In this document: positions 4,370 to 20,000 of the stretch, one piece after another
How positions within the stretch are numbered: position 1 is the first letter of the stretch
How the letters are laid out: each line of letters starts with the position of its first letter
Source: an uncultured virus (IMG/VR IMGVR_UViG_3300030044_000012)
Taxonomy: Duplodnaviria; Heunggongvirae; Uroviricota; Caudoviricetes
DNA: 20,000 nt
Virus record (IMG/VR): IMGVR_UViG_3300030044_000012
Strand: one strand, 5' to 3'
Translations under genes and position numbers: made by a program
Notes under the pieces: model-generated
The model's database searches: none
Seen by the model: only the letters and a program-made list of their open reading frames with translations
What the model was told of the DNA's origin: nothing

Positions 4370-7300
4370 TTAGGTGGTTCCAAATCCAACCCCGAATAAA
4401 ACTGCAAACCCTGTGCTGATTACTGGAGGAGGAGGCGGTTGCCCTGTGTTAGCTTCCTCAATGTTTGAATAGGGTGATGCGCCATCTGTCGAAACTGCTT
4501 GAACCCTGAAGTAGATATGCTGGCCTATTGGTTCAGGGAGGGTTATTGTTTCAACATAACCACTGTTTATCAACGTACGTGTCCAAGTCATTTCATCGAA
4601 AGAAGACTCTAAGATGTAATACTGAATGAGGTCTGGGCGTTCAGCACTCCAGCTAACTGTAAGATCAACATAGTCACCTCCAATTAAACTCCCAACCCCA
4701 ATGGGATTAAGAATAGGAGCGGCGGGACGACCGGCATAAGTGTCATTTGTCTCAAACAGAATTTCACCTGTAGTAACAAACTGATTACGCAAGTTAGAGG
4801 CGTCGAAGATACCAATAATCTGACCATGGGACAAGTCAATCAGGGTCTCATAAGTCTTACCCCCTGCAACAGCAGTTGCTCCGGTTCCTTCTGACGTTGT
4901 GCCATAGTTAGCATGTTGATAGCTGACAACAAATTGAGTAGGTGTGGCCGACGTAACCGTAGCCTTAGCCCCATTCAAAAATGTAGCCGCAGTCAAACCA
5001 TTGAAGGTAACCACGTGTCCCGCAGTGTAGGTGTTATTCGCCACCACAGTGACAATATTTCCAGTAATGTTGATGCTCTGAATGTTGGCTGAAACAAGGG
5101 CGATGGTACCAATAAGGATTTTGCCTGTGCTCAGGGATTCCACATTTGAGGTGCGAACGAACTGCACATTGTCGATCCCATAGAGTTCTCCCGATTCAAC
5201 CGTCAACTCTAATGTGCCCTCTATCGTCATTCCTATGTTTTGTACCTGAAGAAGCAAGCATCCATCTACTCCGGTTAACACGATAATGCGAATGTTGTTA
5301 AAGCTGTAAGTTGAAAACACCTTATTGAAGGACATGCTGGCTTCTGTGCTCAACACAATAGTGGTGTCTGGGTTATCTGTACTAATTAACGGAGCGGTGG
5401 AGTACCGATATAAGTTACCCGCACTATCAAGCACAAACGTCGTATCATCCTCAGTATGTACCGCGTCGATAATCGCATTCTGATTACCTTCACTATCTAG
5501 CGGCACGAAGAGCTTTCGCAAAAGCGCCATATTCGGCTGTATACCACCAAACACGCACACTGAGGCCGGAGAAATTAACAGGTATCGGTCGGAGCCGTCA
5601 AACGCAGAAGACCGTTTAATACTCTGGAAATTTGTATAAATACCAGAGACATCCAGCGGCACCCACGTATGTGTAGTGTTTCGTTGAGAGATAGTGGCGG
5701 TCGGTCCCCACAAGGAGCGGGACAGTTGAAGGGTGTCTTGAATATCAAAGGGGTAGGCAACTATGTTTATCGTCACTGAAGCAGTGACTGGGGAGTTGAC
5801 TCCATCGTTAACAGTGAGACTCCACACTGAGGACTCCCCTTGAATGAGAGCACCGTTTGTATTCACCCGCAAAACAGAGGAAGTTACTCCACCTGAAACA
5901 ACAAGCGGGTTGCCCGATACCTGCGTCCACAGATATGTGGTTGCGTCATCCGATTCTACGATACCAGTATAAGTCGGGGAGATTATGACAAGAGAATTCC
6001 TATCCGCCGCAATCGGGTTGGTAGGGAAAGTGATGGTAGGAGAAGGGTTGTAAGGCACCGTGACATTGCACCAACCAAATTGAGCATTGGCAACTGCATT
6101 TCCAGTATCTGCTGTTGATGTGTAGTCAGCGTGTGTGAAGTTCGCTGTAAAACTATCCCCACTGGTTCCCGTCACCACAACCATAAGATCATTCAAAAAA
6201 GTAGCTGTACCAATGTTGTATAAGAACACCTCTTCTGTGGACGCTAAGTTGACAGAGGCACTCGTGCCAACAGTGAGAACATTAGACGCAATTCCAATCG
6301 TCGTAATAGTCATCGCTGGGCTAGAAGATGTAGTTGCTACAAGTCCCACAATAAAGCTTTGAGCATCCCCTCCGATAGTACGGTTCACCAAAAGGTTAGC
6401 CGTCGTATTCAGTGGAGCCACCGGAGTTAAAGTGACATGGGAGTTTGCAGGAGTAAATGTCCAATCAAAAGTAACTGGGTCAAGGTTTGCGTCGTTCGTA
6501 CCGCTGGCGTTAAATAAAAAGGGAGTTCCACGAATTACAGTTGTAGAACTTGGGAGATGCGTATCCGGTACGAGATTGACCACAGGTGGGGTGTCGAACC
6601 CAGAAATATACCTAGCTCCGAATACTGCATCACCCTCTCCCTGTGCAAGTATTTGTTCTCCAACAACACCCCACTTGGTCAGGTCATCTAAAATATCCTT
6701 AGTGCCGCGAAGCCATGTGAAATTCAGATTGTTGTAGAACCCCGGCGCGTCTACCAGATTAAACGTACTAACTCCATCCACTGTGTCGATATGCAATGTG
6801 GCTGTATGCAACGGCCATGCTGTTGGTGCCTGAGTGAATCGACTGTCGGCAGTTGGAACTGGTGTTGAGGTCCAGTTGGTTGTATCTAGGTTTGGTGAAA
6901 CGGTAGTAGAAGAGATGGCGTTCTTCGCTGTGTAGTAAGCGTAGCTCACTGGAAAGGTGGGAACAGCCACCTGAACCACAGCCCCTGTCGTGTAAGATGT
7001 GTAGGGTTTCCACGCACCCGCATATAAGTAGGTTACTGCTGTGTTAACAATGTAGCTTGTTCCATTGTAGGACACTCGATCATTCACATAGTACGTTTCC
7101 ACCTGAGGTGACCAAACCCCACGTACACTGTACACTGGTTCCGCCAAATAGGAAACACTCGTTCCCTGCGTATTTGCGATTGAGAGCGTCCCCTGAATGT
7201 AAGATGATGTAGTTGACCCCGGAATTACTTGGAAGCTCCAAGCAGACCCGGTGTAATACCCAAGCAATAGGTTACCCACCAAGGCGTTTTGATAGACCAA

Positions 7301-8347
7301 CTGATTATAGAACTGTTGCAGCAGAGTTCGAGTTGATCCTTGAGCAACTACAGTTAAACGAGAGTCGGCATAACGGCTGGTAAAAGTAGTCAACACGGTT
7401 GAGGATGACCAAACATCCGCTGTGCGTGTTACTGCCTTGACGCTAAACGTCTGGTCCTGAAAAGTTATCTGCTTAGGATGACTCTCGTAATAGACCTCGA
7501 TAGTGGAACCATCAGGAGAATAGCACGACACCGCACCAAAGGTATTCCCGGAGCGAAATGGTGAAGAGTCAAGGGAGGTTGCTCCAACCAAAGATACTGG
7601 GTCTGCATTTCCAACCACTTCAAACCCAACAAGAGAATGTCCCGGAAGCCAACTCGCAAAACCATTCTCATAACCCACTTGAGTGTAATTGCTGTGGGTG
7701 TAGGTGGCGGTAAAAGACACCCCCGGTGTGGTGCTGGCTACCGTAACTGTAACCCCATTCATGAACACCGCGTTCTGCAACCCAGAGAGCGTGATTTGTT
7801 GCCCTACCGAGAACTCCACATTACCTTCGACAGTGAGTACATTGCTGGCGATATTGATGTTAGTAACTTCAGCAACTGCCGGAGTTGTCCAGATTTGTTG
7901 AGGATTGGTGAAGGCTATCGCAATGAATTGAGATGCCGACAACGAGCAAATGTCATAAGAATCCCGAACATACGATGCTGTTACAAGCGTAGTCGGGCCG
8001 ACCAGAGTAAGATTGTCAATGTTGAAGTAAAAAAGGATAACGTCGGTGCAATTCCCGTTATCTTGTGTCCCCACAATATAGATTGTGTTGTTTCCATCAA
8101 AGGCCACAACAGGGTCAAATGATGAGTTTGGATGAGGGAAAGTATACGTCGCAGCGGCAGCGAACACTGCACCCGGTCCGGGTTGCGGAGGCGCAGGTTC
8201 AGACACAAACACCGCAAAGGTGTTATCCGCCCGAACCTGCGAGACGATATAAATGGTCGAGTCTATCTCAGTGAACTGGGCGTTGCCAGTAACTAACTCA
8301 CTCGACCATGATTGATTGTCTACCGGGGTAATCATGCGTGCCACCAC
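4370..8347 (-). CDS. large multidomain virion structural/adhesion protein (~1320 aa)
   Basis: Three copies of a ~65-aa beta repeat, chitin-binding-like W..TY..ND.V.Y.G modules, PKD/Ig-like segments (FNASGTND...FDWT; YLWTQVSG), C-terminal FN3-like domain (LTVSWS...YFRVQAVSTDGASPYSN) and GFxxxFGxGFG tail directly before the DUF2793 gene; start may be ATG 8335. Confidence 0.75.
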   Translation of the reverse strand: MVARMITPVDNQSWSSELVTGNAQFTEIDSTIYIVSQVRADNTFAVFVSEPAPPQPGPGAVFAAAATYTFPHPNSSFDPVVAFDGNNTIYIVGTQDNGNCTDVILFYFNIDNLTLVGPTTLVTASYVRDSYDICSLSASQFIAIAFTNPQQIWTTPAVAEVTNINIASNVLTVEGNVEFSVGQQITLSGLQNAVFMNGVTVTVASTTPGVSFTATYTHSNYTQVGYENGFASWLPGHSLVGFEVVGNADPVSLVGATSLDSSPFRSGNTFGAVSCYSPDGSTIEVYYESHPKQITFQDQTFSVKAVTRTADVWSSSTVLTTFTSRYADSRLTVVAQGSTRTLLQQFYNQLVYQNALVGNLLLGYYTGSAWSFQVIPGSTTSSYIQGTLSIANTQGTSVSYLAEPVYSVRGVWSPQVETYYVNDRVSYNGTSYIVNTAVTYLYAGAWKPYTSYTTGAVVQVAVPTFPVSYAYYTAKNAISSTTVSPNLDTTNWTSTPVPTADSRFTQAPTAWPLHTATLHIDTVDGVSTFNLVDAPGFYNNLNFTWLRGTKDILDDLTKWGVVGEQILAQGEGDAVFGARYISGFDTPPVVNLVPDTHLPSSTTVIRGTPFLFNASGTNDANLDPVTFDWTFTPANSHVTLTPVAPLNTTANLLVNRTIGGDAQSFIVGLVATTSSSPAMTITTIGIASNVLTVGTSASVNLASTEEVFLYNIGTATFLNDLMVVVTGTSGDSFTANFTHADYTSTADTGNAVANAQFGWCNVTVPYNPSPTITFPTNPIAADRNSLVIISPTYTGIVESDDATTYLWTQVSGNPLVVSGGVTSSVLRVNTNGALIQGESSVWSLTVNDGVNSPVTASVTINIVAYPFDIQDTLQLSRSLWGPTATISQRNTTHTWVPLDVSGIYTNFQSIKRSSAFDGSDRYLLISPASVCVFGGIQPNMALLRKLFVPLDSEGNQNAIIDAVHTEDDTTFVLDSAGNLYRYSTAPLISTDNPDTTIVLSTEASMSFNKVFSTYSFNNIRIIVLTGVDGCLLLQVQNIGMTIEGTLELTVESGELYGIDNVQFVRTSNVESLSTGKILIGTIALVSANIQSINITGNIVTVVANNTYTAGHVVTFNGLTAATFLNGAKATVTSATPTQFVVSYQHANYGTTSEGTGATAVAGGKTYETLIDLSHGQIIGIFDASNLRNQFVTTGEILFETNDTYAGRPAAPILNPIGVGSLIGGDYVDLTVSWSAERPDLIQYYILESSFDEMTWTRTLINSGYVETITLPEPIGQHIYFRVQAVSTDGASPYSNIEEANTGQPPPPPVISTGFAVLFGVGFGTT

Positions 8348-8973: not shown

Positions 8974-11445
8974 CTAAGCCATCCCCTCGCCGCTTCCCTC
9001 TGGACCTTCCTCCGCTTCGTTGTCAACTTCGTCGAGGGTGAGTCCTTTTATCACTCTTTTTATCAAGTCGGACTTCTCCATAATGACTTGGCCAATGCTA
9101 CCATAGATGTTACTGAGTAACTCGTTGAATTTGCTGTCATTGACAGTAAATAAGCTATCCTGAAGTTTCTGCTTGCAATCTTCAGGGTCGATGTTAAGAA
9201 ACTCAAGGATGATGTCAACAGGCAGACTTCCCTTTGAATATAAATTAAAAAGCATATCGTAAAGGTCGCCACTGTCGCGTAAAGCCATACGTGAAAAGCT
9301 TACCTTGGGGTAAATCCAACGCGGACGACCGTACTTATCGGTTTCGTAGAAGCCTTTCTTCATCGCCACAGGGCGGAAAATCTGGTCTTCAATAATCCCG
9401 GTCAGGACATCCCTAAACTGAGTGTATGACACGTTCATGATTTCCAATTGGATTTTGTTGCCGCTGTACATCCCCTCACCGATAAGCAGTTCAGGCGAGA
9501 GACCGAGACCGATAGCAAGGTCAGAGTTGGTGTGGTTCCACTCAGCATCAAGTGAGAGCAAGCGGCCTTCTGAGCCAATTTCATCCCAACGTGCCTCATA
9601 GTTCAAAACGACCGAGTAATCAGGGTCGCTCTTGGCCTCGTCAATGTGAGCACGAAGAGCCATGACTTCAGACGGTGGGATGTCCGGGGCAATGACCAGT
9701 GTCTTCGGCGTCATGTTACGTGAAGCAATAGTGCTCTGCACCTGACGCAACTTCTCACGATAGATAACCGTGCGGATGCAGCGTTGGAGAATCGAACGGC
9801 CATGCAACTCATAGCCTGACTTCTTACGGGCGAAGTGGATAACGTAAGAACCAGTGAAAGGGTCTTGATTGAGAGCGACCTTACCTTCTGACTGGAGCGT
9901 ATCCTTTACCTCAGGTGCCACGTCCGGGTCTTCCAGATAGGCTTGCTTCTGCTTCTCCGGTGGTTTGTAGTAGACGGTAGGCAAGTCCCCCATCAACCCG
10001 TCTGCGGCCATCTCTATCTGTTCTGGAGCCAGAACCTGAATGCGGTCGAAGCCTTCATAATCAGGGTTCGTCACATGCGAGAATAACTCCATCTCTTCTT
10101 TCTTCTTGTCGCGAATCTCTTTCAACTCTTCAAGGAGTTGCTTCTTCTTTTCCAGCAACCGAAGATAGTGCTTCATCTCCATGATTTCGCGTTGAGCAGA
10201 GATAGAGGAACCCATGGCGATAGCCTCGCGAACATCCCCTGTGGCACCAGCCGGAGTCTCAGGGGAGAATCCTCCTCCTCCACCTCCTCCACCCATAGGC
10301 ATCGAGCCACCGCCGCCGAAATCATCGAGACCGCCAAGGTCACCGTCTCCCATGCCGCCATCATCCATTGGGGCACCCCCTTCTTCAGGAAGAGGACCAC
10401 CGGCATCAGGGGCAGCATCAGCACCCCCTTCAGCGGGGGGTGGGGCAGGAGCCGGATCACCGGGAGCCGCTGTAATGGAGATGGGGTATTGATCGTCAGC
10501 CTTGGATTGAGAAATCAGCTTGGCAATCTTTGAGATACCGGCACGCTTGGTAAAAATCTCCCGTGTAACGGCTGCTACGCTGTCGTCAAAGCTGAAACCA
10601 ACCTTGGACTTGCGTAATTCATCAATGACGGCTGACTTCTTTTTCACCCAAGCTGCGTGTTTATCTGGTGACAGGAAATCCAAAATCTGTCCAGAAGTCC
10701 CACCAAGAGGCCCGTTCTGAGATTCTTTGGTTGGGTCGGCACCCTTAACTCCCCGCTTATCCTTCTCCAAAATCTTCTTGGCGGCGGGGCAGGGTTCAAC
10801 CTCATCGTATTCCTCTACAAACAGGAAGGCTTCACCAATCGTCCAATATTCACGAACGGCGTCGATGAGCACTTGGAACAATTTTGTGTTGTTCACTAGC
10901 CCGGTGAAATAATCATAGATGTAATCTGCGTACTCATCACTCGAACATTTTGGCTTCTCAAGAACCATCTTGGATAGCGGGAGTTCGGTGTGCATATCGA
11001 TAGCACGACCAACAACAGGGTCACGGTCGTAAGCCAAGCGATAGAAGCGAAGTTCCTCAGGACGTGAGGCTGGGAGTTCCAGTGCATCCACTGGAAATTC
11101 ATAGCTATAGTATCCAATGTTATTTGAATCTTGAATGTCGGCGTAACCTAGAGAACCATCAGAGAACAACCCTGCGGTCTTGACCCGCTCATACATACCC
11201 CAACCACGATTGGGGGAAGAGACATCGCCTTTGGCGGCTTGTCGGATAGCTTGTATCTGGTGGTCATCAATAATCTCATCATCGGTGCCGGATTTCATGC
11301 GAGACCAGCGGCCAGCGGAAGCGTATTGCTTTCCTGATTTGTCCGCAGCTACCTTACGGACTTCTGTTCTAATTTGTGGTTGAACACCGTTACGAAGACG
11401 ACTTGACGCTGCTTTCTTACCTTTACCCTCATCTTTTTCTGCCAT
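8974..11445 (-). CDS. phage portal protein with ~250-aa internal insertion
   Basis: YDRDPVVGRAIDMHTELPLS, REYWTIGEAF, VIHFARK...HGRSILQRC, LAIGLGLS...GEGMYS and PKVSFSRMAL follow the order seen in large-phage portals. Confidence 0.8.
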   Translation of the reverse strand: MAEKDEGKGKKAASSRLRNGVQPQIRTEVRKVAADKSGKQYASAGRWSRMKSGTDDEIIDDHQIQAIRQAAKGDVSSPNRGWGMYERVKTAGLFSDGSLGYADIQDSNNIGYYSYEFPVDALELPASRPEELRFYRLAYDRDPVVGRAIDMHTELPLSKMVLEKPKCSSDEYADYIYDYFTGLVNNTKLFQVLIDAVREYWTIGEAFLFVEEYDEVEPCPAAKKILEKDKRGVKGADPTKESQNGPLGGTSGQILDFLSPDKHAAWVKKKSAVIDELRKSKVGFSFDDSVAAVTREIFTKRAGISKIAKLISQSKADDQYPISITAAPGDPAPAPPPAEGGADAAPDAGGPLPEEGGAPMDDGGMGDGDLGGLDDFGGGGSMPMGGGGGGGGFSPETPAGATGDVREAIAMGSSISAQREIMEMKHYLRLLEKKKQLLEELKEIRDKKKEEMELFSHVTNPDYEGFDRIQVLAPEQIEMAADGLMGDLPTVYYKPPEKQKQAYLEDPDVAPEVKDTLQSEGKVALNQDPFTGSYVIHFARKKSGYELHGRSILQRCIRTVIYREKLRQVQSTIASRNMTPKTLVIAPDIPPSEVMALRAHIDEAKSDPDYSVVLNYEARWDEIGSEGRLLSLDAEWNHTNSDLAIGLGLSPELLIGEGMYSGNKIQLEIMNVSYTQFRDVLTGIIEDQIFRPVAMKKGFYETDKYGRPRWIYPKVSFSRMALRDSGDLYDMLFNLYSKGSLPVDIILEFLNIDPEDCKQKLQDSLFTVNDSKFNELLSNIYGSIGQVIMEKSDLIKRVIKGLTLDEVDNEAEEGPEGSGEGMA

Positions 11446-12277: not shown

Positions 12278-15200
12278 TCATGAGTTCAATACCTCAGAAA
12301 TTGAGTGAATATCTTTTACAAACTCCTCCGGCACCTCAGTTACCGCTTTGTTGCGGAGCAGTTGCAACTTGCCACGATAGATGACACGAATGTTGTGAGT
12401 TCCAACCCCCAGCCGTTTCCTCAACCGAGCACCCACCTCTTCATCTAAGTCAATAATTTCAACAATCTGCTCTGGTTCTTCGACAACAGCCGGTACTTGT
12501 TCTACCACCCTAGTTACCGCCTCAGCAAAAGCTGAGGCCGCAGCCGCCATAGCTTTAAGTGGGGTTGGTTCTTCTTCAACCTCATCTTCATCGTCATCCA
12601 AATTCACTTTGACTGTAGCCGTTACATACTCCAAAGGCTTGTCCAAGGTGACCGTGATGGTTTGCTCAGAAACAACCACTTCGATGTCTTCCACTTCTAC
12701 AGGCTCCCCAAGAACCTCCACGGTTGGACGCTTGACTGTTGCAGTTAGTGGGATGGCACCGAGGTAGCCGAACTCTGGGGTGAGAGGATCACGATTCTCA
12801 ACCCCGAGACCCATCCGTTTTTCATAGGCTTCAAGAGTTTCCAACTTGTCATCCTCATCATCCGGAGTGTGGTCAATACGCCAGTATTCATCCAACTGAA
12901 GAGCCGCGATGAGTGCCTTCTTCCGTGCCTTGTCATCTTTGGCCTCAAAGAAATGGTTGGCCGCAATGAAAGCACGCGGGTGAAGGCTTTCTTCGAGGAA
13001 AGCCTTCGCCTTGGCAATGCGAGTGTCTATCCCCGAGCCCACAGCTTGAACAAGGTTCTTAAGAGTGTCAACTTCCCACTCATCAGGGATATAATTGGCA
13101 ATTTCCTTGATTTCCGTCCATGCTGCTGGCGTGTGGTCATCATCACCAGTCACGTGGTGCTCCACATCCCATGAGTTACCATACTCGGCATCAGACTCGA
13201 TAGGCACCCTCCACTTCATCTTCTCATGCATCTTACGCAACTTCATGAGACGAGTGATGCGGGGAAGAATGAATGGTACATACTCATTCTTAACGATGAA
13301 GTCAATTTCATCATGCACCGAGCAGTGCAGATGGAACACCGACTGTACCAAGGGGTCACTCTCTACCCACTTGCGAATCCGGTTAAGAGACATACGCATG
13401 AAGTCACCGGCCAGCCCTTGCAAAGGAACGTTGACGCTGACACGTTGAATCTTACCCATGAACTTGTTGTAGTCCATGCAGTTCCTGACTCCTGTGTCTG
13501 AGTCCTTCCACATACGGTCGGCCATTGCCCGGAAGCTTGCGGCCTTCTCCGGGTCTTCTGCCTTCTTGGCAGCTTCTGACTTCCTCATCAAGTCACGATA
13601 TGCCCAATAGTTCTTGGTCTCCTCTTCGGTGGGTACGTGAATGTGTTGTGCTTCCATCGCCGACTTGAAACTAATGACACGTCCAGTCGCCGTCTTGCAA
13701 TACATCTCTTCCTTGGCGATGTTCTGCTTTGTCTGACACCAATCGAAAAATACCGGGACACCTTCCCAATACTTGGCGACCATCTTCTTGGCTTCTTCCC
13801 AAGTGATGTCTGGTTTCTTCTTCTTCATGTTTTCATAGATGGTGTACTCAGTACCGCCATACAACAACGCGAAGTTGATGATCTTAGCGAGGTCGCGGAG
13901 ACTCTTACGAATCGCCTTCGATGTATTCGGGTCGGTGAATTCAGCAAATACCTTACTGGCAGTGAGTGAGTGAAAGTCACCTTTACCGACAAGAAACTCA
14001 TTGATGAATTCCGGCTCACCTGATACATTGGCAGCGCAACGCATTTCAATGTTGCCATAGTCAACCGAAAATAATGTCCAGCCGGGAGGAGCATGGAACA
14101 AGCAACGAAGGTTAACAACCTCATTAGCATCTATCTTGGTGTTTTCAATTAAGATGCCATACTTGTCAGCACACGTCTTACACTCAGGCACTAAGCAGAC
14201 AGCGTACCCCATGTACTTGCCGATATGATTTTTGACAATACCGGGGGCTTTGGTACGCACCTTAATCTTCTTCTCTTCAACCACCTCTTCCAAGACGGGC
14301 TCACCACCTACTTCATGAAAGCGAGGCAAGCCGGTCTCCCAGTCCATGCTTTGCTTATAAGAGATGATAGTTTCAACCTTATCTTTCTCTTTAAAACAAG
14401 AGGGATGTAGGTCCGACTCGGTATACTCTTCGATGTCTTCATCCGATATTTTCTCAGGATCAGGATCGAGGACGTTACCCTTAACCTTCCACATCAAGTA
14501 GCTTTCAATCTTCTTGATGCCCTGAGGGTTGAGACCGAAACCGCCATCACGCTCAAACTCACCACCGGCAGCAGCCAGACGGCCACCAGCCACCACGTTC
14601 TGCTTGAGGTAAATACGGGCGCTATGGTCACGTGGGTCAAAGCGAAGGTTATCTGGGTGCAGGGCCATGTAATCCCTGTATTGAAGGATAGTCTCAAGGA
14701 ATTTATCCTCTGGGTGCTGCTTGAACAAATCTTCAAGAGCTTCAGCATCGCATGACGGATTTCCCGTGGTGGTAAATTTGGAAACGGTGTAACCCTTGAC
14801 CTTGAAGAACAAGGTTTGAAGTTGCATAGTCGAGCCGGGGTTGAATTGCTCTTCTTCAGCTACCGTACCTTCATCCCCCTTGGGCTCTTCGTACCCGGCA
14901 TCAAGAGCAAGCTGACGAAGCTTTATACGCATCCCATCCAGCTTCTTGCGGTGCCCCTTAACCGTACGAGAGAGGCGATTGGTGTCTACCAGCCAACGTT
15001 GACGTTCAATCCACGTGATGGACTCAACCAACTCATGGTCAATGCGGTGGATTATCTTGCGGCTCCGGGCAAGTTCATACATCTTCTTCCAGAGCAGCCA
15101 TGTGCAGATGGCGTCACCAGCGGCGTACCAGAGTGCAATGTCAGTTGGTATCCATGAGAAAGGAACAAACTGATTCTTGAGCGTATGCTTGTACGCCTTC

Positions 15201-16018
15201 CTTTGTTCAACAGAGCAGTTACAGAATGGGCCACCCGTTAATGGGCAGTAATCTACCTTGACCTTGGCAATCTCTTCCAGTTCAATCTGGTCAATACCAA
15301 GCACATTCTTTGACAGAGCCTTCAACCCACCGGCACCACCAGTGAATGACCCTTTGTCGCCGAGGTCCGCCTTGGGGTCGTTGATGTAGGCTAGTACCTG
15401 CACATCCTCGAAGTGAGGGTAGGAACGAAAGTTGATCCCCATGGTAAGGCGAAGAACTTCACGGTCAAACTTTGCGTTGTAAAACACAAGATGGCAACGA
15501 TCAAACAGGTACTGTAGTATCTCCGCACACTTCTCGCGGTCGATGTTGACCGCTGCTGTGCTCAGCGTCTGGTCTTTCTTCTCGTGGTTAACTGAGATGT
15601 AGACACCATCCATACCATCGGATGAGAGGCAGATACCTGCAAGCTCAATGTTAACTTCGTAAACATGATCCCACGAACCATCCGGTCGTTGTATCTTTTC
15701 AACAAGAACACGAGTATCCAGCCCCATGGTCTCAGTGTCTAGTGCAACAACGGGAGTCAACACGCCATCAATGAGAATGTGCCGGGAGGTGTCAGCCAAC
15801 ACGCTATCTACCCATGTTTGCAAATCCTCAGGGGTATTGATAAGACGGAATGCTTTCTGAGCCATCCATGGCTTCTTCAGCTTAGGCAGGTCCACTTCCT
15901 TAAGGGTCTTGCGGAATACGTACCGTATATCCTTGGGTTCCTTCTTGGACTTGGCCTTCTTCTTCGGCTGTACCTTTGTCAGTTCTTCTTGACCGACTTT
16001 CTGTTGTGTAATTTTCAT
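12278..16018 (-). CDS. polA: family A DNA polymerase with 3'-5' exonuclease
   Basis: ExoI ALDTETMG, ExoII FYNAKFD, ExoIII YAAGDA; motif A SVDYGNIEMR, motif B RDLAKIINFALLYG, motif C SVHDEI; no 5'-3' exonuclease domain. Confidence 0.95.
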   Translation of the reverse strand: MKITQQKVGQEELTKVQPKKKAKSKKEPKDIRYVFRKTLKEVDLPKLKKPWMAQKAFRLINTPEDLQTWVDSVLADTSRHILIDGVLTPVVALDTETMGLDTRVLVEKIQRPDGSWDHVYEVNIELAGICLSSDGMDGVYISVNHEKKDQTLSTAAVNIDREKCAEILQYLFDRCHLVFYNAKFDREVLRLTMGINFRSYPHFEDVQVLAYINDPKADLGDKGSFTGGAGGLKALSKNVLGIDQIELEEIAKVKVDYCPLTGGPFCNCSVEQRKAYKHTLKNQFVPFSWIPTDIALWYAAGDAICTWLLWKKMYELARSRKIIHRIDHELVESITWIERQRWLVDTNRLSRTVKGHRKKLDGMRIKLRQLALDAGYEEPKGDEGTVAEEEQFNPGSTMQLQTLFFKVKGYTVSKFTTTGNPSCDAEALEDLFKQHPEDKFLETILQYRDYMALHPDNLRFDPRDHSARIYLKQNVVAGGRLAAAGGEFERDGGFGLNPQGIKKIESYLMWKVKGNVLDPDPEKISDEDIEEYTESDLHPSCFKEKDKVETIISYKQSMDWETGLPRFHEVGGEPVLEEVVEEKKIKVRTKAPGIVKNHIGKYMGYAVCLVPECKTCADKYGILIENTKIDANEVVNLRCLFHAPPGWTLFSVDYGNIEMRCAANVSGEPEFINEFLVGKGDFHSLTASKVFAEFTDPNTSKAIRKSLRDLAKIINFALLYGGTEYTIYENMKKKKPDITWEEAKKMVAKYWEGVPVFFDWCQTKQNIAKEEMYCKTATGRVISFKSAMEAQHIHVPTEEETKNYWAYRDLMRKSEAAKKAEDPEKAASFRAMADRMWKDSDTGVRNCMDYNKFMGKIQRVSVNVPLQGLAGDFMRMSLNRIRKWVESDPLVQSVFHLHCSVHDEIDFIVKNEYVPFILPRITRLMKLRKMHEKMKWRVPIESDAEYGNSWDVEHHVTGDDDHTPAAWTEIKEIANYIPDEWEVDTLKNLVQAVGSGIDTRIAKAKAFLEESLHPRAFIAANHFFEAKDDKARKKALIAALQLDEYWRIDHTPDDEDDKLETLEAYEKRMGLGVENRDPLTPEFGYLGAIPLTATVKRPTVEVLGEPVEVEDIEVVVSEQTITVTLDKPLEYVTATVKVNLDDDEDEVEEEPTPLKAMAAAASAFAEAVTRVVEQVPAVVEEPEQIVEIIDLDEEVGARLRKRLGVGTHNIRVIYRGKLQLLRNKAVTEVPEEFVKDIHSISEVLNS

Positions 16019-16031
16019 ACCTACCTGTTAC

Positions 16032-16727
16032 CTATCTTCTGACCTGTTTGTAAGCGAAAATGCGGTTTCTCTCTTCTTTGGTCAAAGCCTGAGCGAGGGT
16101 CAGAGAAGCTTTAACTTCAAAGGCATTGGCGTCTTCTGGTTCACCTTCTCTTCTCGCAGTGTCAGCAAGTTTCATGCTCTGGAGGGCTTTGAAGTAATGG
16201 CATAGGTAGTCTTCAGCGAGTTCAACATCTCTGAACTCCTGTACCTGCCGAATCGCTTTCAAAATAAAGGGTTCCTGTAAGTCGGCGAACTGCAATTCGA
16301 TTGTTTCAACATCTTCTTCTTCCGGTACAATATCGGCAAGCGGAGATAGCTCCCACTTCTTTTCCAGCCAGTTAAGGGCGGCTGCGCGATTGATGCCCAA
16401 ATACTTTGAAACAAACCGTACTTGATCGTAGTATTGTTCTTTAGGAGGACAGCCGAAACACCACCCATCATTCGTTCTCTTATACAACCAGAACGAGGGG
16501 CGTGAGTCTCGGCCATGGAATGGGCAACTAATTGCGGTGCTACCGCTACGACCTGTTAGGTCAGCAACAATATCTTCGAAGCGAATGTCTCTGCGTACTC
16601 GATCCCAGCGTTCAGGGTTTATTTCCTTTGACCACCCTGACCGATACAGCTTATATAGACTACTCTTCTCGAAGGTTAGTTGATCTTCTTCGGGTATTAG
16701 TTCCTCAAGTTCCTTGTCCTCTGGCAT
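16032..16727 (-). CDS. stand-alone CHC2 (DnaG-type) zinc-finger protein
   Basis: ISCPFHGRDSRPSF...GWCFGC followed by a helix typical of the DnaG zinc-binding domain; no TOPRIM domain. Confidence 0.85.
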   Translation of the reverse strand: MPEDKELEELIPEEDQLTFEKSSLYKLYRSGWSKEINPERWDRVRRDIRFEDIVADLTGRSGSTAISCPFHGRDSRPSFWLYKRTNDGWCFGCPPKEQYYDQVRFVSKYLGINRAAALNWLEKKWELSPLADIVPEEEDVETIELQFADLQEPFILKAIRQVQEFRDVELAEDYLCHYFKALQSMKLADTARREGEPEDANAFEVKASLTLAQALTKEERNRIFAYKQVRR

Positions 16728-16784
16728 GAAAGATAATACGCAAATCCATGTTACCGATCAGCAAGAATTGAGGTATTTTAAGAT
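16728..16784. promoter_or_regulatory. divergent promoter region with back-to-back GTATT-N7-ATG motifs
   Basis: GTATT lies exactly 7 nt before the ATG on both strands (16739-16735 minus; 16773-16777 plus); same motif before ATG 2560. Confidence 0.5.
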
Positions 16785-17489
16785 ATGAGGCATTTAGTGA
16801 TTGGCTCCAAAGGTCAGGTGGGCTCAGCCCTGCTTGAAGTTCTTTCTGAGAAGTGTGAGGTTTTTGACATTGACTTCAATGAAGTGCTGCCTTTCGCCGG
16901 GAAGTTCAATGTGCTCCACATATGCATTCCCTACAATGATCTGTTTGAGGCGGCGGTCACAACATACATTAAGCAGTACCTTACTCCTCAAGGATTGGTC
17001 ATTATTCACTCTACAGTGCCCGTAGGCACGTCCACGAAGTTAAATGCGGTTCATTCCCCCATCCGAGGTGTCCACCCGCACCTAGCGGACGGTATTCGCC
17101 GATTTCTAAAATTTTTCGGTGGACCGAGGGCGGCTGAAGCTGCTTGGATGTGGCACAGTATTGTGGGTGGGACGGCCAGCGCCAGCCCCAAGGCCGAGGA
17201 CACCGAAGCTCTGAAACTGTGGGACACAACCTACTACGGCTGGAACATCGTATTCGAGAAGGCTGTCAAAGCGTACTGTGATGAGCACAGGCTCAACTTC
17301 GACATCGTGTACACACAGGCCAACCGGAGCTACAACGAGGGCTATGCAAATTTAGGCATGGAGTCCGTTCGTCGCCCGGTGCTGAAACACTATCCGGGCA
17401 AGGTTGGCGGACATTGCGTCATTCCGAATGCAAAGTTACTCGGCGGCGAAGTTGCTGATTTTATCTTGAAGAAGAACGAGGAATATTAG
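16785..17489 (+). CDS. short UDP-glucose/GDP-mannose dehydrogenase family protein
   Basis: Rossmann VIGSKGQVG, HICIP, IIHSTVPVGT, EALKLWDTT and catalytic VGGHC; lacks the C-terminal UDP-binding domain. Confidence 0.85.
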   Translation: MRHLVIGSKGQVGSALLEVLSEKCEVFDIDFNEVLPFAGKFNVLHICIPYNDLFEAAVTTYIKQYLTPQGLVIIHSTVPVGTSTKLNAVHSPIRGVHPHLADGIRRFLKFFGGPRAAEAAWMWHSIVGGTASASPKAEDTEALKLWDTTYYGWNIVFEKAVKAYCDEHRLNFDIVYTQANRSYNEGYANLGMESVRRPVLKHYPGKVGGHCVIPNAKLLGGEVADFILKKNEEY

Positions 17490-17518
17490 CTACCGGGTCT
17501 AGTGGACCCACGAAGCGG

Positions 17519-18074
17519 TTGTATCAAAAGTTTGAAAGAGATGGAGACAACAACTCCCTCTGCCCAGTCTGCGGTAAGGCTTTCAGCCTAAATGGAGTAC
17601 AAACCCATTGGAGGCTTAAACATCGTGGAGATGCTAATAGCGGGAGCGGTTGGAACCGTGGGCTAACTATAAACACAGATACCCGAGTGGCGGCTAACAC
17701 CTTAAATGCTACAGCGGGTTTGAACAAGTTCTACAACACCCTTACCCCTGACGAAAAATTAAAACTGAACGCTCGAAGAAGACCAAAAAACACAGCCAAT
17801 ATGGGAGGGGTAAGACGGGGCTCTGGTCGGGGTAAGAAGGGTTGGTGCCGAGGCTACTGGTGCGACTCCACATGGGAACTAGCTTGGGTGCTGTACAGCA
17901 CCGACCATAGTATACAATTCACCCGCAATACTGAAGGGTTCGCTTACACATTTGAAGGTAAGAGATACAAATAAAGCAGAGATGAAGCCGCTACTCAGTT
18001 ACGCGATAAAAACGTACGGTGATGACTTCGTGAATATGTATGGTGGGGAGTCCGGGAATCGGACCCGACTCTAA
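17519..18074 (+). pseudogene. zinc-finger + PD-(D/E)xK-type homing endonuclease, internally deleted and frameshifted
   Basis: C2H2 finger CPVC...HWRLKH; GKKGWCRGYWCDSTWELAW...FEGKRYK stops where Y-x-PDF...EIKG is expected; another frame continues KAEMKPLLSYAIKTYGDDFVNMY to TAA 18074. Confidence 0.6.
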
Positions 18075-18116
18075 GGATTTTCAGTCCCCCGCATCGACCA
18101 CGTTTGCTTACTCCCC
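18041..18116 (-). tRNA. tRNA-Phe(GAA), non-canonical, CCA encoded
   Basis: GGGGAGT/ACTCCCC acceptor + ACCA; D stem GCA/TGC with GG; anticodon arm GGGGA-CTGAAAA-TCCTT; T arm TCGGG-TCCGATT-CCCGG; 76 nt. Confidence 0.88.
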
Positions 18117-18193
18117 ATACGGAAATATACACGCCTCGCTGTTAGCGAGTGCTAGTAAATCGTTCCGCCGAGTTGTAGTTCTGGTAGTTCATT

Positions 18194-18340
18194 TCATTTC
18201 CTTAATACTTGTTCCAAAAGTCCAGCAATGTAAATCAACAAGCGAATAATTAAGACCGTCTCAGCAGACCACACCGAGGTTATCTTATCGGCCTCCGCCT
18301 GTGCTTCTACAGAGGAGTCAATCCTTGGAAAATGACTCAT
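18194..18340 (-). CDS. small protein (48 aa) with a hydrophobic C-terminal segment
   Basis: MSHFPRIDSSVEAQAEADKITSVWSAETVLIIRLLIYIAGLLEQVLRK; starts 3 nt after the stop of 18344..18571. Confidence 0.55.
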   Translation of the reverse strand: MSHFPRIDSSVEAQAEADKITSVWSAETVLIIRLLIYIAGLLEQVLRK

Positions 18341-18343
18341 GGC

Positions 18344-18571
18344 CTAAACAGTTACGTCATTAACATAAACAGTCACGTCATCAACAGCGAGTTCAGTGCC
18401 TGTCGGGAGGTCCAAATCCCCCTCCACAAACACAGCACCCGGAGGAAGCTCACCGATAGTTATCGGGATGCGGGTTTGGGTCGTCGGGCAGTGCAAGAAA
18501 AACAAAAGCCCTTCGCGAACCACTCGCCACCTCGGGCAACCGTTATACTCCAGAATGATTCCCTGTGCCAT
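18344..18571 (-). CDS. small hypothetical protein (75 aa)
   Basis: ATG preceded by GAAAGGAAAG; natural-looking sequence; lies directly 3' of the structured region. Confidence 0.7.
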   Translation of the reverse strand: MAQGIILEYNGCPRWRVVREGLLFFLHCPTTQTRIPITIGELPPGAVFVEGDLDLPTGTELAVDDVTVYVNDVTV

Positions 18572-18589
18572 CGTGCTTTCCTTTCAAAC

Positions 18590-19597
18590 TCAAGGGCACC
18601 TTGCGATGCCCTTAAAGGGGACGTAGCGGTTTCCCGCGTCCCTCCACCACTTGCATTTTACAGATGCAAGAAACTGACTGGGAGTCACCCCATCTACCGC
18701 TCCACCGGCTTTTACGAAGCCGGAAACGTCTCCATGGGAGCCACTTGGTTTACGTCCAAGAACGGAGCCGAATAGCTCTCAGAGACTAGTATAACACCTC
18801 TGAGCCCTCCTCGTCCACCACTTAGTTTACGTCTAAGAACGCCCGGTTTAACGACCTTACCGGGAACGGCGAGATTGTCGTTCTGCCTGCCGCCTAGTTA
18901 ACGTCTAGGAACGCTTGAAGCGTGAAGCGTGAGCATCCGGCTCTGCTAGTTTACCGGATACGCCGCACTCCCCAACTACACTAGCATCGAGAGGAGCCGC
19001 TCTTAGTAGGATTAACTAACCTACCCACCCACTACACCCTTTTTGTTTTAATTCGGATGGTCGCCTAAGCGGAGTAACCGAATGTTCTGTGGGCTCTCAC
19101 GTGTTACCTTACTCATCCTGAGTGTACCATAACGGCTCTCCAATGAGCAAGCTCAATATCAATGGCGGTTTATGTGACGCCGCCAAACACCCCCTAAGTT
19201 ATCGAATCGGGAAGACGCCCCTGAGTAACGAAGTCAGAGGGCTCGACATCTAATTCACGGAGTAGACACCACACCGACCCTATGTTACGAGTCCGGGCAG
19301 GACACGTCTCGTTAAGTTTACGTTCCAGAGCGGAACGGCCTTATTTTACCTCCAAAGCGAGAGGATCGCGAAGCCCCAACATACGATTCAGGACTAGCAA
19401 TATCTGCGGATGTTCTCAATACTATGGGCACCGTATGAACATGGTTAACGGCCTGTTTAAGCCACTGGCTCCAGACCTTACGATGTGGAGGCATCCGCAT
19501 ATTTTAGGCCGGGAGAGGAGGTCGCCTAACAACTGCCGTGCGTGCTACACAGCCTGACGACCCGCGTGCCTCCCGGTTGGGGTTCGCACTAAACCCC
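18590..19597 (-). ncRNA. putative large structured non-coding RNA (or RNA cluster), ~1 kb, family unassigned
   Basis: No credible ORF. GNRA-capped hairpins on the minus strand (AAGGGCAUC-GCAA-GGUGCCCUU, CGG-GAAA-CCG, AUC-GUAA-GGU), G-U-rich stems, long-range helices (19492-19499 with 19405-19412; CCGGGAG/CUCCCGG) and repeated loop motifs. Confidence 0.65.
18644..18914 (-). repeat. array of six stem-loops: GUU(U)-stem-N(C/U)GU(A/U)AA-stem-YG(G)
   Basis: Hairpins at 18650-18670, 18705-18723, 18744-18760, 18821-18837, 18842-18864 and 18893-18909 with compensatory stem changes (CUUGG/CCAAG, CUUAG/CUAAG, CCUAG/CUAGG). Confidence 0.85.
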
Positions 19598-19741
19598 GGA
19601 AATAATCTCTTTGGCAATCTGTTCGCGAACTAACGCGATAATCTCCTCGGCAACATCAGTCTGCCGTGGATTTGCACCCTTGGCGAAAACGTAGCTGTCA
19701 ATCTTCTCAACGACTCGCGTAACCAAATCCTTTTCTTCCAT
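19589..19741 (-). CDS. small hypothetical protein (50 aa)
   Basis: MEEKDLVTRVVEKIDSYVFAKGANPRQTDVAEEIIALVREQIAKEIISGV; GGAG RBS 6 nt upstream; not in the provided ORF track. Confidence 0.7.
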   Translation of the reverse strand: MEEKDLVTRVVEKIDSYVFAKGANPRQTDVAEEIIALVREQIAKEIISGV

Positions 19742-19757
19742 GGGGTTCTCCAAAACC

Positions 19758-20000
19758 TATGGCGGTTTACGGACTCCGCCAAACGCCTCTATGTTTACGA
19801 AACCGAGGAGGCTCGTCCTAGTTACGTACAGAATAACGGCCTACTACTATGGGTCGAGGCTAGACTCATCTGTTTTTACAGTGCAGCTAACTGTTTCACA
19901 ATTGACGTTGACCTTCTTAGGGGTCACCGAGGTAGCAAACATACCTAACCTGACTTATAGCTCAGGCCCAGCGTTCCGGCAGCTAACGGGTCGCCGAACG
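19758..20000 (-). ncRNA. second structured RNA segment related to 19162-19341 (continues beyond the window)
   Basis: Shares ordered motifs AGGCCGUU...ACGUAA(A)CU...ACGAG...UCGUAA(A)CAUAG...GYGUUUGGCGG...UAAACCGCCAU with the first region; further hairpins to the window end. Confidence 0.6.

Follow-up and report, generated by a model that had tools for sequence, protein, structure and literature searches.

What a phage encodes where the tRNA island next to its replication genes runs out of recognizable genes is the question raised by positions 18590 to 20000 of a 20,000-nucleotide stretch from an uncultured tailed phage (IMG/VR record IMGVR_UViG_3300030044_000012), a stretch that we refer to as the window. 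A sequence-only reading of the window had found no credible open reading frame (ORF) in 18590-19590 and 19758-20000 and proposed that the region encodes an undescribed large structured RNA, or a family of RNAs, on the minus strand. Indeed, no ORF of at least 100 amino acids is present there, only smaller ones (19589-19741 on the minus strand and several on the plus strand), and both the RNA-level reading and the minus strand are supported by stems and pseudoknots that covary, by the presence of an established RNA family, and by RNA contigs found in each of four metatranscriptomes. Of the two alternatives offered, the family of RNAs is the better fit. We consider it likely that the region, which is the polymerase-proximal end of a phage tRNA island, is built of minus-strand modules: an RNA here called RNA A, a spacer with a nonconserved ORF, a conserved segment called block C, and a series of units of the type that make up the wcaG RNA, closing with a wcaG leader.

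How the region relates to known RNAs is clearest at its downstream end. A match to the entire wcaG model was found just ahead of a conserved 75-amino-acid ORF (E value of 1.2e-6 in a 2.1-kb search), and the margin over the cutoff was small. Two hairpins flanked by GUUUC and GUGG, units g and h, enclose a central hairpin as the family requires, and the published CYRG/CYG pseudoknot is present, with CAG at 18676-18674 pairing to CUG at 18663-18661. The same pairing occurs in a related phage (L002), which has its own wcaG match at 7610-7705 (42.2 bits) ahead of the orthologous ORF. A closer relative, the metagenome contig L021, has kept the ORF but is missing one wcaG half and gives no wcaG match. 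The array of units followed by the 75-amino-acid ORF is nonetheless kept in three lineages. In the window, 64 nucleotides separate the end of wcaG from the ATG of the ORF, and the RNA thus likely occupies a 5′ untranslated region. The intervening sequence holds hairpins with GNRA loops as the sequence-only reading had said (GCAA at 18604-18601 and GAAA at 18633-18630; a third such loop, GUAA, is at 19481-19478, all on the minus strand), and a GGAGGG...GAAA...CCCC helix found there recurs in L002, in phage transfer-messenger RNAs (tmRNAs), and in loci of Candidatus Eremiobacterota. In the account of Weinberg et al. (2010, PMC2864571), wcaG occurs in marine metagenomes and in cyanophages of the T4 type, where it precedes exopolysaccharide or high-light genes; they rate it a probable cis-regulatory RNA and riboswitch candidate, and their supplement tabulates 120 representatives. 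The motif is not known to have a ligand. The pseudoknot fold was already known, as that supplement labels it. "Undescribed" is apt only in part, as the 3′-most 100 nucleotides or so belong to wcaG RNA; what differs here is the free-standing, repeated use of the wcaG half-unit.

Eight canonical wcaG half-units, all on the minus strand, lie within 1.15 kb (starting at 19786, 19190, 18914, 18869, 18842, 18765, 18729, and 18676). The fold of each, a compact pseudoknot of the H type, can be written NNG-UU(U)-stem (5 to 7 bp)-loop-stem-(G)UGG. Its U run has one to three nucleotides, the 5′ side of the loop pairs with the triplet ahead of that run, and the loop ends in (U)AAA. Conservation of the loop and flanks (GUUU, (U)AAA, and GUGG) exceeds what pairing needs. 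The 12 to 14 hairpins with a shared loop motif reported earlier correspond to these eight clean units plus about four looser hairpins with ..UCGUAAC.. loops, the latter judged by eye. CGTAAA occurs 13 times in the window, with 8.7 occurrences expected overall, and six of its eight minus-strand copies fall within 18711-19799. Unit b resembles unit a, including the upstream hairpin (local alignment z of 9.7), and in the L021 ortholog of unit a, at 6216, GCG/CGU has become GUG/CAC. In unit d, GUCGUU of the long loop can pair by eye with AACGAC 12 nucleotides upstream. The number of units differs between relatives. An RNA contig of metatranscriptome run X22 joins position 18674 to 18842 with 145 other letters between them, and therefore a related phage has a different set of units there, such that unit content varies among strains.

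Covariation supports both stems of the unit. When 12 sequences of the most common unit type are aligned, every one of the 96 cells pairs and four of the eight pairs change on both sides, a result reached by none of 500 shuffles. Pairing of the hairpin stem was required by the unit search; pairing of the pseudoknot stem was not. Among 28 distinct units (35 distinct rows minus seven dropped by eye for wrong strand, flank, or loop: window + 18139, window + 19574, L002 18214, L021 - 7582, L021 - 6610, L007 - 7753, and L008 - 3690), 12 form three Watson-Crick pseudoknot pairs in strict register. The permutation mean was 3.9, and none of 20,000 permutations reached 12. The pairs seen were ACG/CGU, CAG/CUG, GUG/CAC, GAG/CUC, UAG/CUA, and AAG/CUU.

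Where else the unit occurs bears on what it might do. Ten viral stretches matched an IUPAC pattern of the unit; three come from the L002 phage, and L007 and L009 duplicate one another. The phage tmRNA genes of L006, L011, and L012 carry the unit, with GUGGUGGAGGG...CCCC after it, in the part that forms pseudoknots PK3 and PK4, while two units precede an ORF in L007 and units adjoin tRNA genes in L008 and L010. A second pattern, GTTTC..AGTGGTGGAGG, matched at least 118 stretches, mostly by chance; 80 were fetched, and 71 of these had no hairpin. Of the nine that did, L043, L063, and L093 are again the unit within tmRNA genes, bringing the phage tmRNA genes with the unit to six. These six show that the unit occurs in tmRNA genes and not how often, as all were found through a search for the unit. 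Weak wcaG model matches overlap the tmRNA in L043 (28.9 bits) and L063 (23.2 bits), and L105 carries a subthreshold wcaG-like pair (32.5 bits). Another weak wcaG-like match (24.9 bits), at L043:171-255, immediately follows the 3′ end of the L043 tmRNA gene. A literature search found no publication linking wcaG to tmRNA, none being relevant by title or abstract.

In cellular genomes, an exact 23-nucleotide unit pattern was found in eight genome records of 185,579 species, and all eight are metagenome-assembled genomes of Candidatus Eremiobacterota. The units there lie outside tmRNA, and the tmRNAs of three Eremiobacterota genomes lacked the unit under a narrow unit model (R1). The same model found the unit in 3 of 101 sampled Eremiobacterota genomes; as it misses wcaG halves and other variants, it gives no census. 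At the eight loci (L144-L151, with wider context in L160-L162), a single-copy arrangement of the exact unit, a GGAGGG...CCCC helix, and a terminator-like hairpin sits in differing gene contexts, and in three of them a conserved GGCCGGGGUGGAGAAUCGGGAAUCCCCGG element and a common upstream string precede the unit. The locus looks like an uncatalogued small RNA of about 200 to 250 nucleotides and has no Rfam match at an E value of ≤1. That the exact unit was confined, among the species genomes scanned, to Eremiobacterota offers a lead to the host of an uncultured peat phage.

RNA A, at the other end of the region, stands out at the RNA level. Four peat metatranscriptome runs from four coded studies were mapped on 14000-20000, and each gave one contig without mismatches that ran from 19784, 19786, 19788, or 19789 to 20000 and 18 to 79 nucleotides past it, for lengths of 230 to 296 nucleotides. 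The four share an end within 6 nucleotides of 19786, with no loose end there, and their mean word depths were 605, 71.5, 36.5, and 5.7. Other contigs had depths of 2 to 12: 17972-18224 around tRNA-Phe (10.1), 18624-18897 over units and wcaG (3.4), 14051-14287 in the polymerase gene (2.3), 19206-19378 in run X22 only (4.3), and a 41-nucleotide piece at 19830-19870 with three mismatches (12), which is probably from the RNA A of a relative. DNA carryover does not explain the RNA A peak, because most of 14000-17800 is without a contig. RNA A is probably a discrete, highly abundant RNA of roughly 300 nucleotides. The mapped end coincides with the last stem strand of an element capable of forming a pseudoknot, just ahead of unit a.

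A homolog of RNA A in L021 (about 5932-6218) begins where a tRNA(CAU) ends, at 5931, and the homologs share a long-range helix, with 4 of 33 predicted pairs changing on both sides. The L021 homolog folds with a z of -2.80, matched by none of 200 shuffles. Folding energy does not settle the strand, because the antisense also folds fairly well, and we provisionally assign RNA A to the minus strand by the orientation of all the tRNA genes and units around it. RNA A is encoded among tRNA genes in both phages, with tRNA-Phe 1.7 kb downstream in the window. It matches no Rfam family; GOLLD, ROOL, OLE, and HEARO in particular gave no match at an E value of ≤10 in 17900-20000 of the window or 5840-6300 of L021, and nothing similar to the L021 homolog was found in three Eremiobacterota genomes. 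A plus-strand ORF over RNA A (19740-20000) is not conserved and was rejected. The L021 tRNA(CAU), at 5854-5931, has a 9-nucleotide D-loop insertion and was missed by ARAGORN and recovered by Rfam (32.7 bits).

What lies between RNA A and the downstream units is conserved unevenly. The small ORF below unit a has no similar ORF in L021, no Pfam or PHROG match, and no RNA contig over it, and the spacer that follows aligns weakly with L021. Block C follows in turn, with conservation equal to that of the best coding parts: stretches identical to L021 of 31 nucleotides (19101-19071) and 39 nucleotides (19003-18965) lie within it, and a third of 38 nucleotides (18925-18888) starts at its last base and enters unit c, together making three of the six matches of at least 31 nucleotides along the shared 9 kb or so. 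Indels in block C relative to L021 fall in hairpins, as at 19024-19006. No RNA contig covers block C, and missing cover proves nothing. Promoter-like sites precede block C and unit f; the one ahead of block C was seen by eye, was not listed by a promoter scan of the window, and aligns with a scanned site in L021 (TTGAAA-17-TATACT, 6755-6783), and L002 has by eye TTGCAA-16-TATACT just ahead of its own units. The count of such sites in the region is not above that in shuffles.

Features of the window discussed in the text, in order of position
Feature	Position	Strand	Basis or detail
Portal protein	8974-11445	minus	protein matches
Family A DNA polymerase	12278-16018	minus	Pfam/PHROG protein matches
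Primase-type zinc finger	16032-16727	minus	protein matches
tRNA-Phe (GAA)	18041-18116	minus	ARAGORN and Rfam
Conserved 75-amino-acid ORF downstream of wcaG	18344-18571	minus	72% identical to L002 7760-7957
Two GNRA-capped hairpins between wcaG and the ribosome-binding site	18590-18642	minus	sequence reading
wcaG RNA (RF01761)	18636-18731	minus	45.1 bits against a gathering score of 42; model 1-98 of 98
Units g and h (wcaG halves)	18729-18705, 18676-18650	minus	wcaG alignment
Unit f	18741-18765	minus	unit model, 42.5 bits
Promoter-like site	18788-18817	minus	TGGACG-18-TATACT with TG; promoter scan
Unit e	18818-18842	minus	unit model, 45.3 bits
Unit d	18842-18869	minus	conserved in L021
Unit c	18890-18914	minus	identical in L021 at 6974-7004
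Block C, highly conserved, noncoding	18925-19113	minus	exact L021 matches
Promoter-like site	19121-19150	minus	TTGCTC-18-TACACT with TG; by eye
Unit b	19163-19190	minus	GUG-UUU-GGCGG-..CAC..AUAAA-CCGCC
Poorly conserved spacer with hairpins (long-range helices and looser ..UCGUAAC.. ones)	19191-19588	minus	weak alignment to L021
Small ORF, 50 amino acids from its ATG	19589-19741	minus	sequence reading; GGAG 8 nucleotides upstream
Unit a	19761-19786	minus	GCG-UUU-GGCGG-loop-CCGCC
Pseudoknot-capable element, mapped end of RNA A	19786-19815	minus	CGAG-CCUC-CUCG-(14-nucleotide A-rich loop)-GAGG; H-type pairing by eye
RNA A, visible part (about 215 nucleotides), running past the window end	19784-20000	minus (putative)	RNA contigs, four peat metatranscriptomes

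Which phage the window comes from is suggested by its relatives. These lie on viral contigs of 140 to 231 kb, and the 75-amino-acid protein (eight protein clusters, all hypothetical; no match in Pfam or PHROG) has been recorded on 17 contigs of up to 310 kb; the source is therefore probably a jumbo phage. The stretch itself is present in peat metagenomes. A search by the 75-amino-acid ORF returned only the L002 phage (represented by L002-L004). Its polymerase protein is 73 to 74% identical to that of the window, nine tRNA genes occupy the 8 kb ahead of its polymerase gene, and its DNA resembles the flagged region only over the last 150 nucleotides or so. L021 has a polymerase 81% identical, is collinear with the window over 19870-18814, and has no counterpart of 18814-18675, where unit f and the first wcaG half lie; the two are about 76% identical in coding DNA, and conservation of the flagged region is patchy. 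Phage GenBank records contained nothing resembling the region apart from a tRNA-Phe fragment. The window polymerase is 1,246 amino acids long, with an acidic, poorly conserved C-terminal part of about 250 amino acids past the Pfam domains.

The tRNA islands of the relatives hold 9 to 10 tRNA genes within 8 to 10 kb upstream of the polymerase gene as well as odd tRNA-like pieces. At L002:7060-7135, in the ORF-free 600 nucleotides that precede the L002 units, a degenerate piece has an intact CAU anticodon arm (CGGG-CUCAUAA-CCCG) and no T arm convincing by eye. Just upstream of tRNA-Phe in the window, 18133-18178 contains exact matches of 25 and 20 nucleotides to L021, inside which is the hairpin CUCGCUAACAGCGAG, listed by a terminator scan in L021; on the plus strand the segment reads as a unit-like hairpin. 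Weak matches to the Y RNA-like YrlA adjoin tRNA genes in two islands (L008:2063-2189, 31.2 bits, and L021:918-1047, 27.5 bits, against a cutoff of 69), and a subthreshold match to manA RNA (40.9 bits against 55.2) spans the interval from tRNA-Asn to tRNA-Cys at L012:7165-7400, in an island that also contains a unit-bearing tmRNA gene.

Whether the region is unusually structured is a separate matter. The sequence-only reading had described nearly continuous inverted repeats, and one of 14 nucleotides is real (19399-19412 with 19492-19505, 86% complementary). Continuity beyond chance fails by folding energy: when 150-nucleotide windows were each compared with 25 dinucleotide shuffles, the 17 from the region had a mean minus-strand z of -0.55, equal to that of 40 background windows (-0.55, standard deviation of 1.13), and z for 19754-20000 alone was -1.17 (minus strand) and -1.72 (plus strand). 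A failure to fold better than shuffled sequence had been named beforehand as grounds for rejecting an RNA function, and it is what the region as a whole shows; given the other evidence, we do not take it as such. The helix GGUGUCUA/UAGAUGUC (about 19270-19245) is specific to the minus strand, as had been said, because three G-U wobbles take part in it. The long-range helices at 19590-19400 fared worse, as they fall in the part that aligns worst with L021, the only close relative, and have no comparative support. Comparison of four segments of the region with one another found only short common modules (A-B, z of 9.7 over 45 nucleotides; C-D, z of 5.2) and ruled out a large tandem duplication. 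A hammerhead-like GAUGAG at 19870, noted by eye, was dropped, as no Rfam match supported it.

How RNA A and the units might function can be proposed in outline. RNA A may be cut out of a tRNA cotranscript and trimmed back to the pseudoknot-capable fold at its end, which would place it with small stable RNAs such as RNAC and RNAD, from the tRNA region of T4. The units may be portable, nuclease-resistant building blocks that set and protect the ends of RNAs and the leader segments of island transcripts, much as pseudoknots add folding and stability to tmRNA, and the ORF-adjacent pair, wcaG, might act as a cis-regulatory leader. Granting the modular arrangement, we hold it plausible, at somewhat less than an even chance, that the units are portable folds that define and stabilize ends and that the ORF-proximal pair is also regulatory. 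We speculate further, and regard as rather unlikely in its full extent, that wcaG is not a metabolite sensor at all but two portable pseudoknot modules, shared by phages among the pseudoknot domains of tmRNA, gene leaders, and the spacers of tRNA islands and present as well in a small RNA of Eremiobacterota. The role of such modules would be to set RNA ends and shield them, and RNA A, made in this way, would represent a new class of jumbo-phage RNA of high abundance.

Several points weigh against the modular arrangement and its proposed function. Nuclease resistance of the units is a supposition, and the overall folding energy of the region is no better than that of coding background. The Logan contigs from which RNA A was recognized give neither strand nor true ends nor precursor; coinciding contig ends are a weak hint, depth is unsuited to ranking, and the runs were selected using this same stretch. 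The antisense of the L021 homolog also folds fairly well (z of -2.02, with 6 of 200 shuffles as good). Moreover, L021 is the sole close relative for both RNA A and block C: exact-pattern scans of viral contigs with two block C strings and one RNA A string returned no matches, and nhmmer profiles of the two found L021 alone among the collected loci. Block C, strongly conserved yet without RNA contigs, may act as DNA. Finally, 16 of the 28 units do not form three Watson-Crick pseudoknot pairs in strict register and pair by G-U, in a shifted register, or not at all, and the units, orthologous ones included, are not phylogenetically independent.

The strongest competitor, to which we nevertheless give a low probability, is that the wcaG pair, and perhaps every unit, senses a small molecule or protein and tunes the downstream ORF and tRNA instead of stabilizing RNA. 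The riboswitch candidacy assigned by Weinberg et al. (PMC2864571), the position 64 nucleotides ahead of a conserved ORF in three lineages, and conservation of loop and flanks past pairing needs all suit a sensor. Units are also found, however, where there is nothing downstream to regulate, both in tmRNA genes and, in one host genome, at a terminator-ended locus that faces a convergent gene. Moreover, the ORF persists in L021 after loss of a wcaG half, and no alternative pairing that hides the ribosome-binding site was seen by eye. That block C and the repeats act as DNA, for instance as an origin of replication or a packaging site next to the replication genes, seems improbable to us. The three exact matches to L021 of 31 to 39 nucleotides beside an A-rich run, 2 to 3 kb from the primase and polymerase genes, and the missing contigs over 18925-19113 speak for a DNA element, but absent cover proves nothing, the indels between the window and L021 are hairpins, one stem changes on both sides by eye (AUCCGG/CCGGAU against UCAG/CUGA), and the units are strand specific, with G-U pairs and pseudoknot covariation.

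We think it equally improbable that the units and nearby hairpins are the functionless, decaying debris of former tRNA or tmRNA genes in a fast-evolving island. In its favor, phage tmRNA genes have an identical unit followed by GUGGUGGAGGG...CCCC in their pseudoknot region, tRNA genes and odd tRNA-like pieces crowd the island, and unit number varies between relatives. Against it, units c and d with their flanks differ little or not at all between the window and L021, which share about 76% identity in coding DNA; both unit stems covary; the array and the ORF are retained in three lineages; the wcaG family has 120 representatives (Weinberg et al., PMC2864571); and the window has no tRNA-like domain or tag reading frame. 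Least probable of all is that the 1.4 kb or more is one ornate RNA of the GOLLD or ROOL kind, made near tRNA genes and folded into a single particle. The setting in a tRNA island is one that GOLLD and ROOL often share, GOLLD env-38 lies downstream of a Met-tRNA (bioRxiv 10.1101/2024.12.08.627333) as the L021 homolog of RNA A follows tRNA(CAU), and hairpins and pseudoknots abound on one strand. The Rfam models for GOLLD, ROOL, OLE, HEARO, tmRNA, RNase P, and introns, to which comparison had been proposed, nonetheless gave no match in 17900-20000 at an E value of ≤10. Moreover, contigs stop near 19786 in all four runs with a drop in depth of more than 50-fold, a plausible ORF and two promoter-like sites interrupt the stretch, conservation in L021 is patchy with 18814-18675 missing, L002 shares the last 150 nucleotides or so only, and folding energy is at background level. 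The arrangement of separate minus-strand modules remains the reading that we prefer.

How the modules compare with known systems can be stated one by one. To the wcaG family, the window conforms in its full-model match, its two GUUUC-stem-loop-GUGG hairpins around a central hairpin, its published pseudoknot, and its place in the 5′ untranslated region of a phage gene; it differs in coming from a peat phage, in a tRNA island, ahead of a 75-amino-acid ORF of unknown function, and in the six further single units that precede the wcaG copy and that the family model does not score. The family has been an orphan since 2010, and the occurrence of its half-unit both as a free-standing repeat and within the tmRNA genes of phages suggests a concrete purpose for the fold, one that assays of stability or end definition can test directly, in place of ligand screens. 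Pseudoknots PK2 to PK4 of tmRNA (RF00023) are likewise compact H-type pseudoknots in series, and six phage tmRNA genes have the identical unit and a GGAGGG...CCCC helix in the PK3/PK4 region. The window differs from tmRNA, as ARAGORN gives tRNA-Phe alone and, up to position 20000, there is no tRNA-like domain, tag reading frame, or RF00023 match at an E value of ≤10; the three Eremiobacterota tmRNAs searched with the narrow model also lack the unit. Plant-virus RNA 3′ ends, too, carry runs of small H-type pseudoknots, in upstream pseudoknot domains and exonuclease-resistant folds. The models of the tobacco mosaic virus and brome mosaic virus upstream pseudoknot domains match the units below threshold (15 to 22 bits against cutoffs of 34 to 39), a likeness of shape and not membership.

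GOLLD and ROOL are phage encoded, frequently adjacent to tRNA islands, pseudoknot rich, and without an assigned function (bioRxiv 10.1101/2024.12.08.627333), but they are much larger (GOLLD often exceeds 800 nucleotides), each has a single conserved architecture, and their Rfam models do not match the window. The nearest precedent for RNA A is the T4 tRNA region, from which RNAC and RNAD, small RNAs of unknown role, are transcribed (PMC3014915). Like them, RNA A is an abundant small RNA beside phage tRNA genes; it is longer, at about 300 nucleotides, and its cotranscription with tRNA is presumed; the likeness lies in the setting. RNA A would thereby join, as an environmentally abundant and uncatalogued member, the few small RNAs of phage tRNA regions that have no assigned role.

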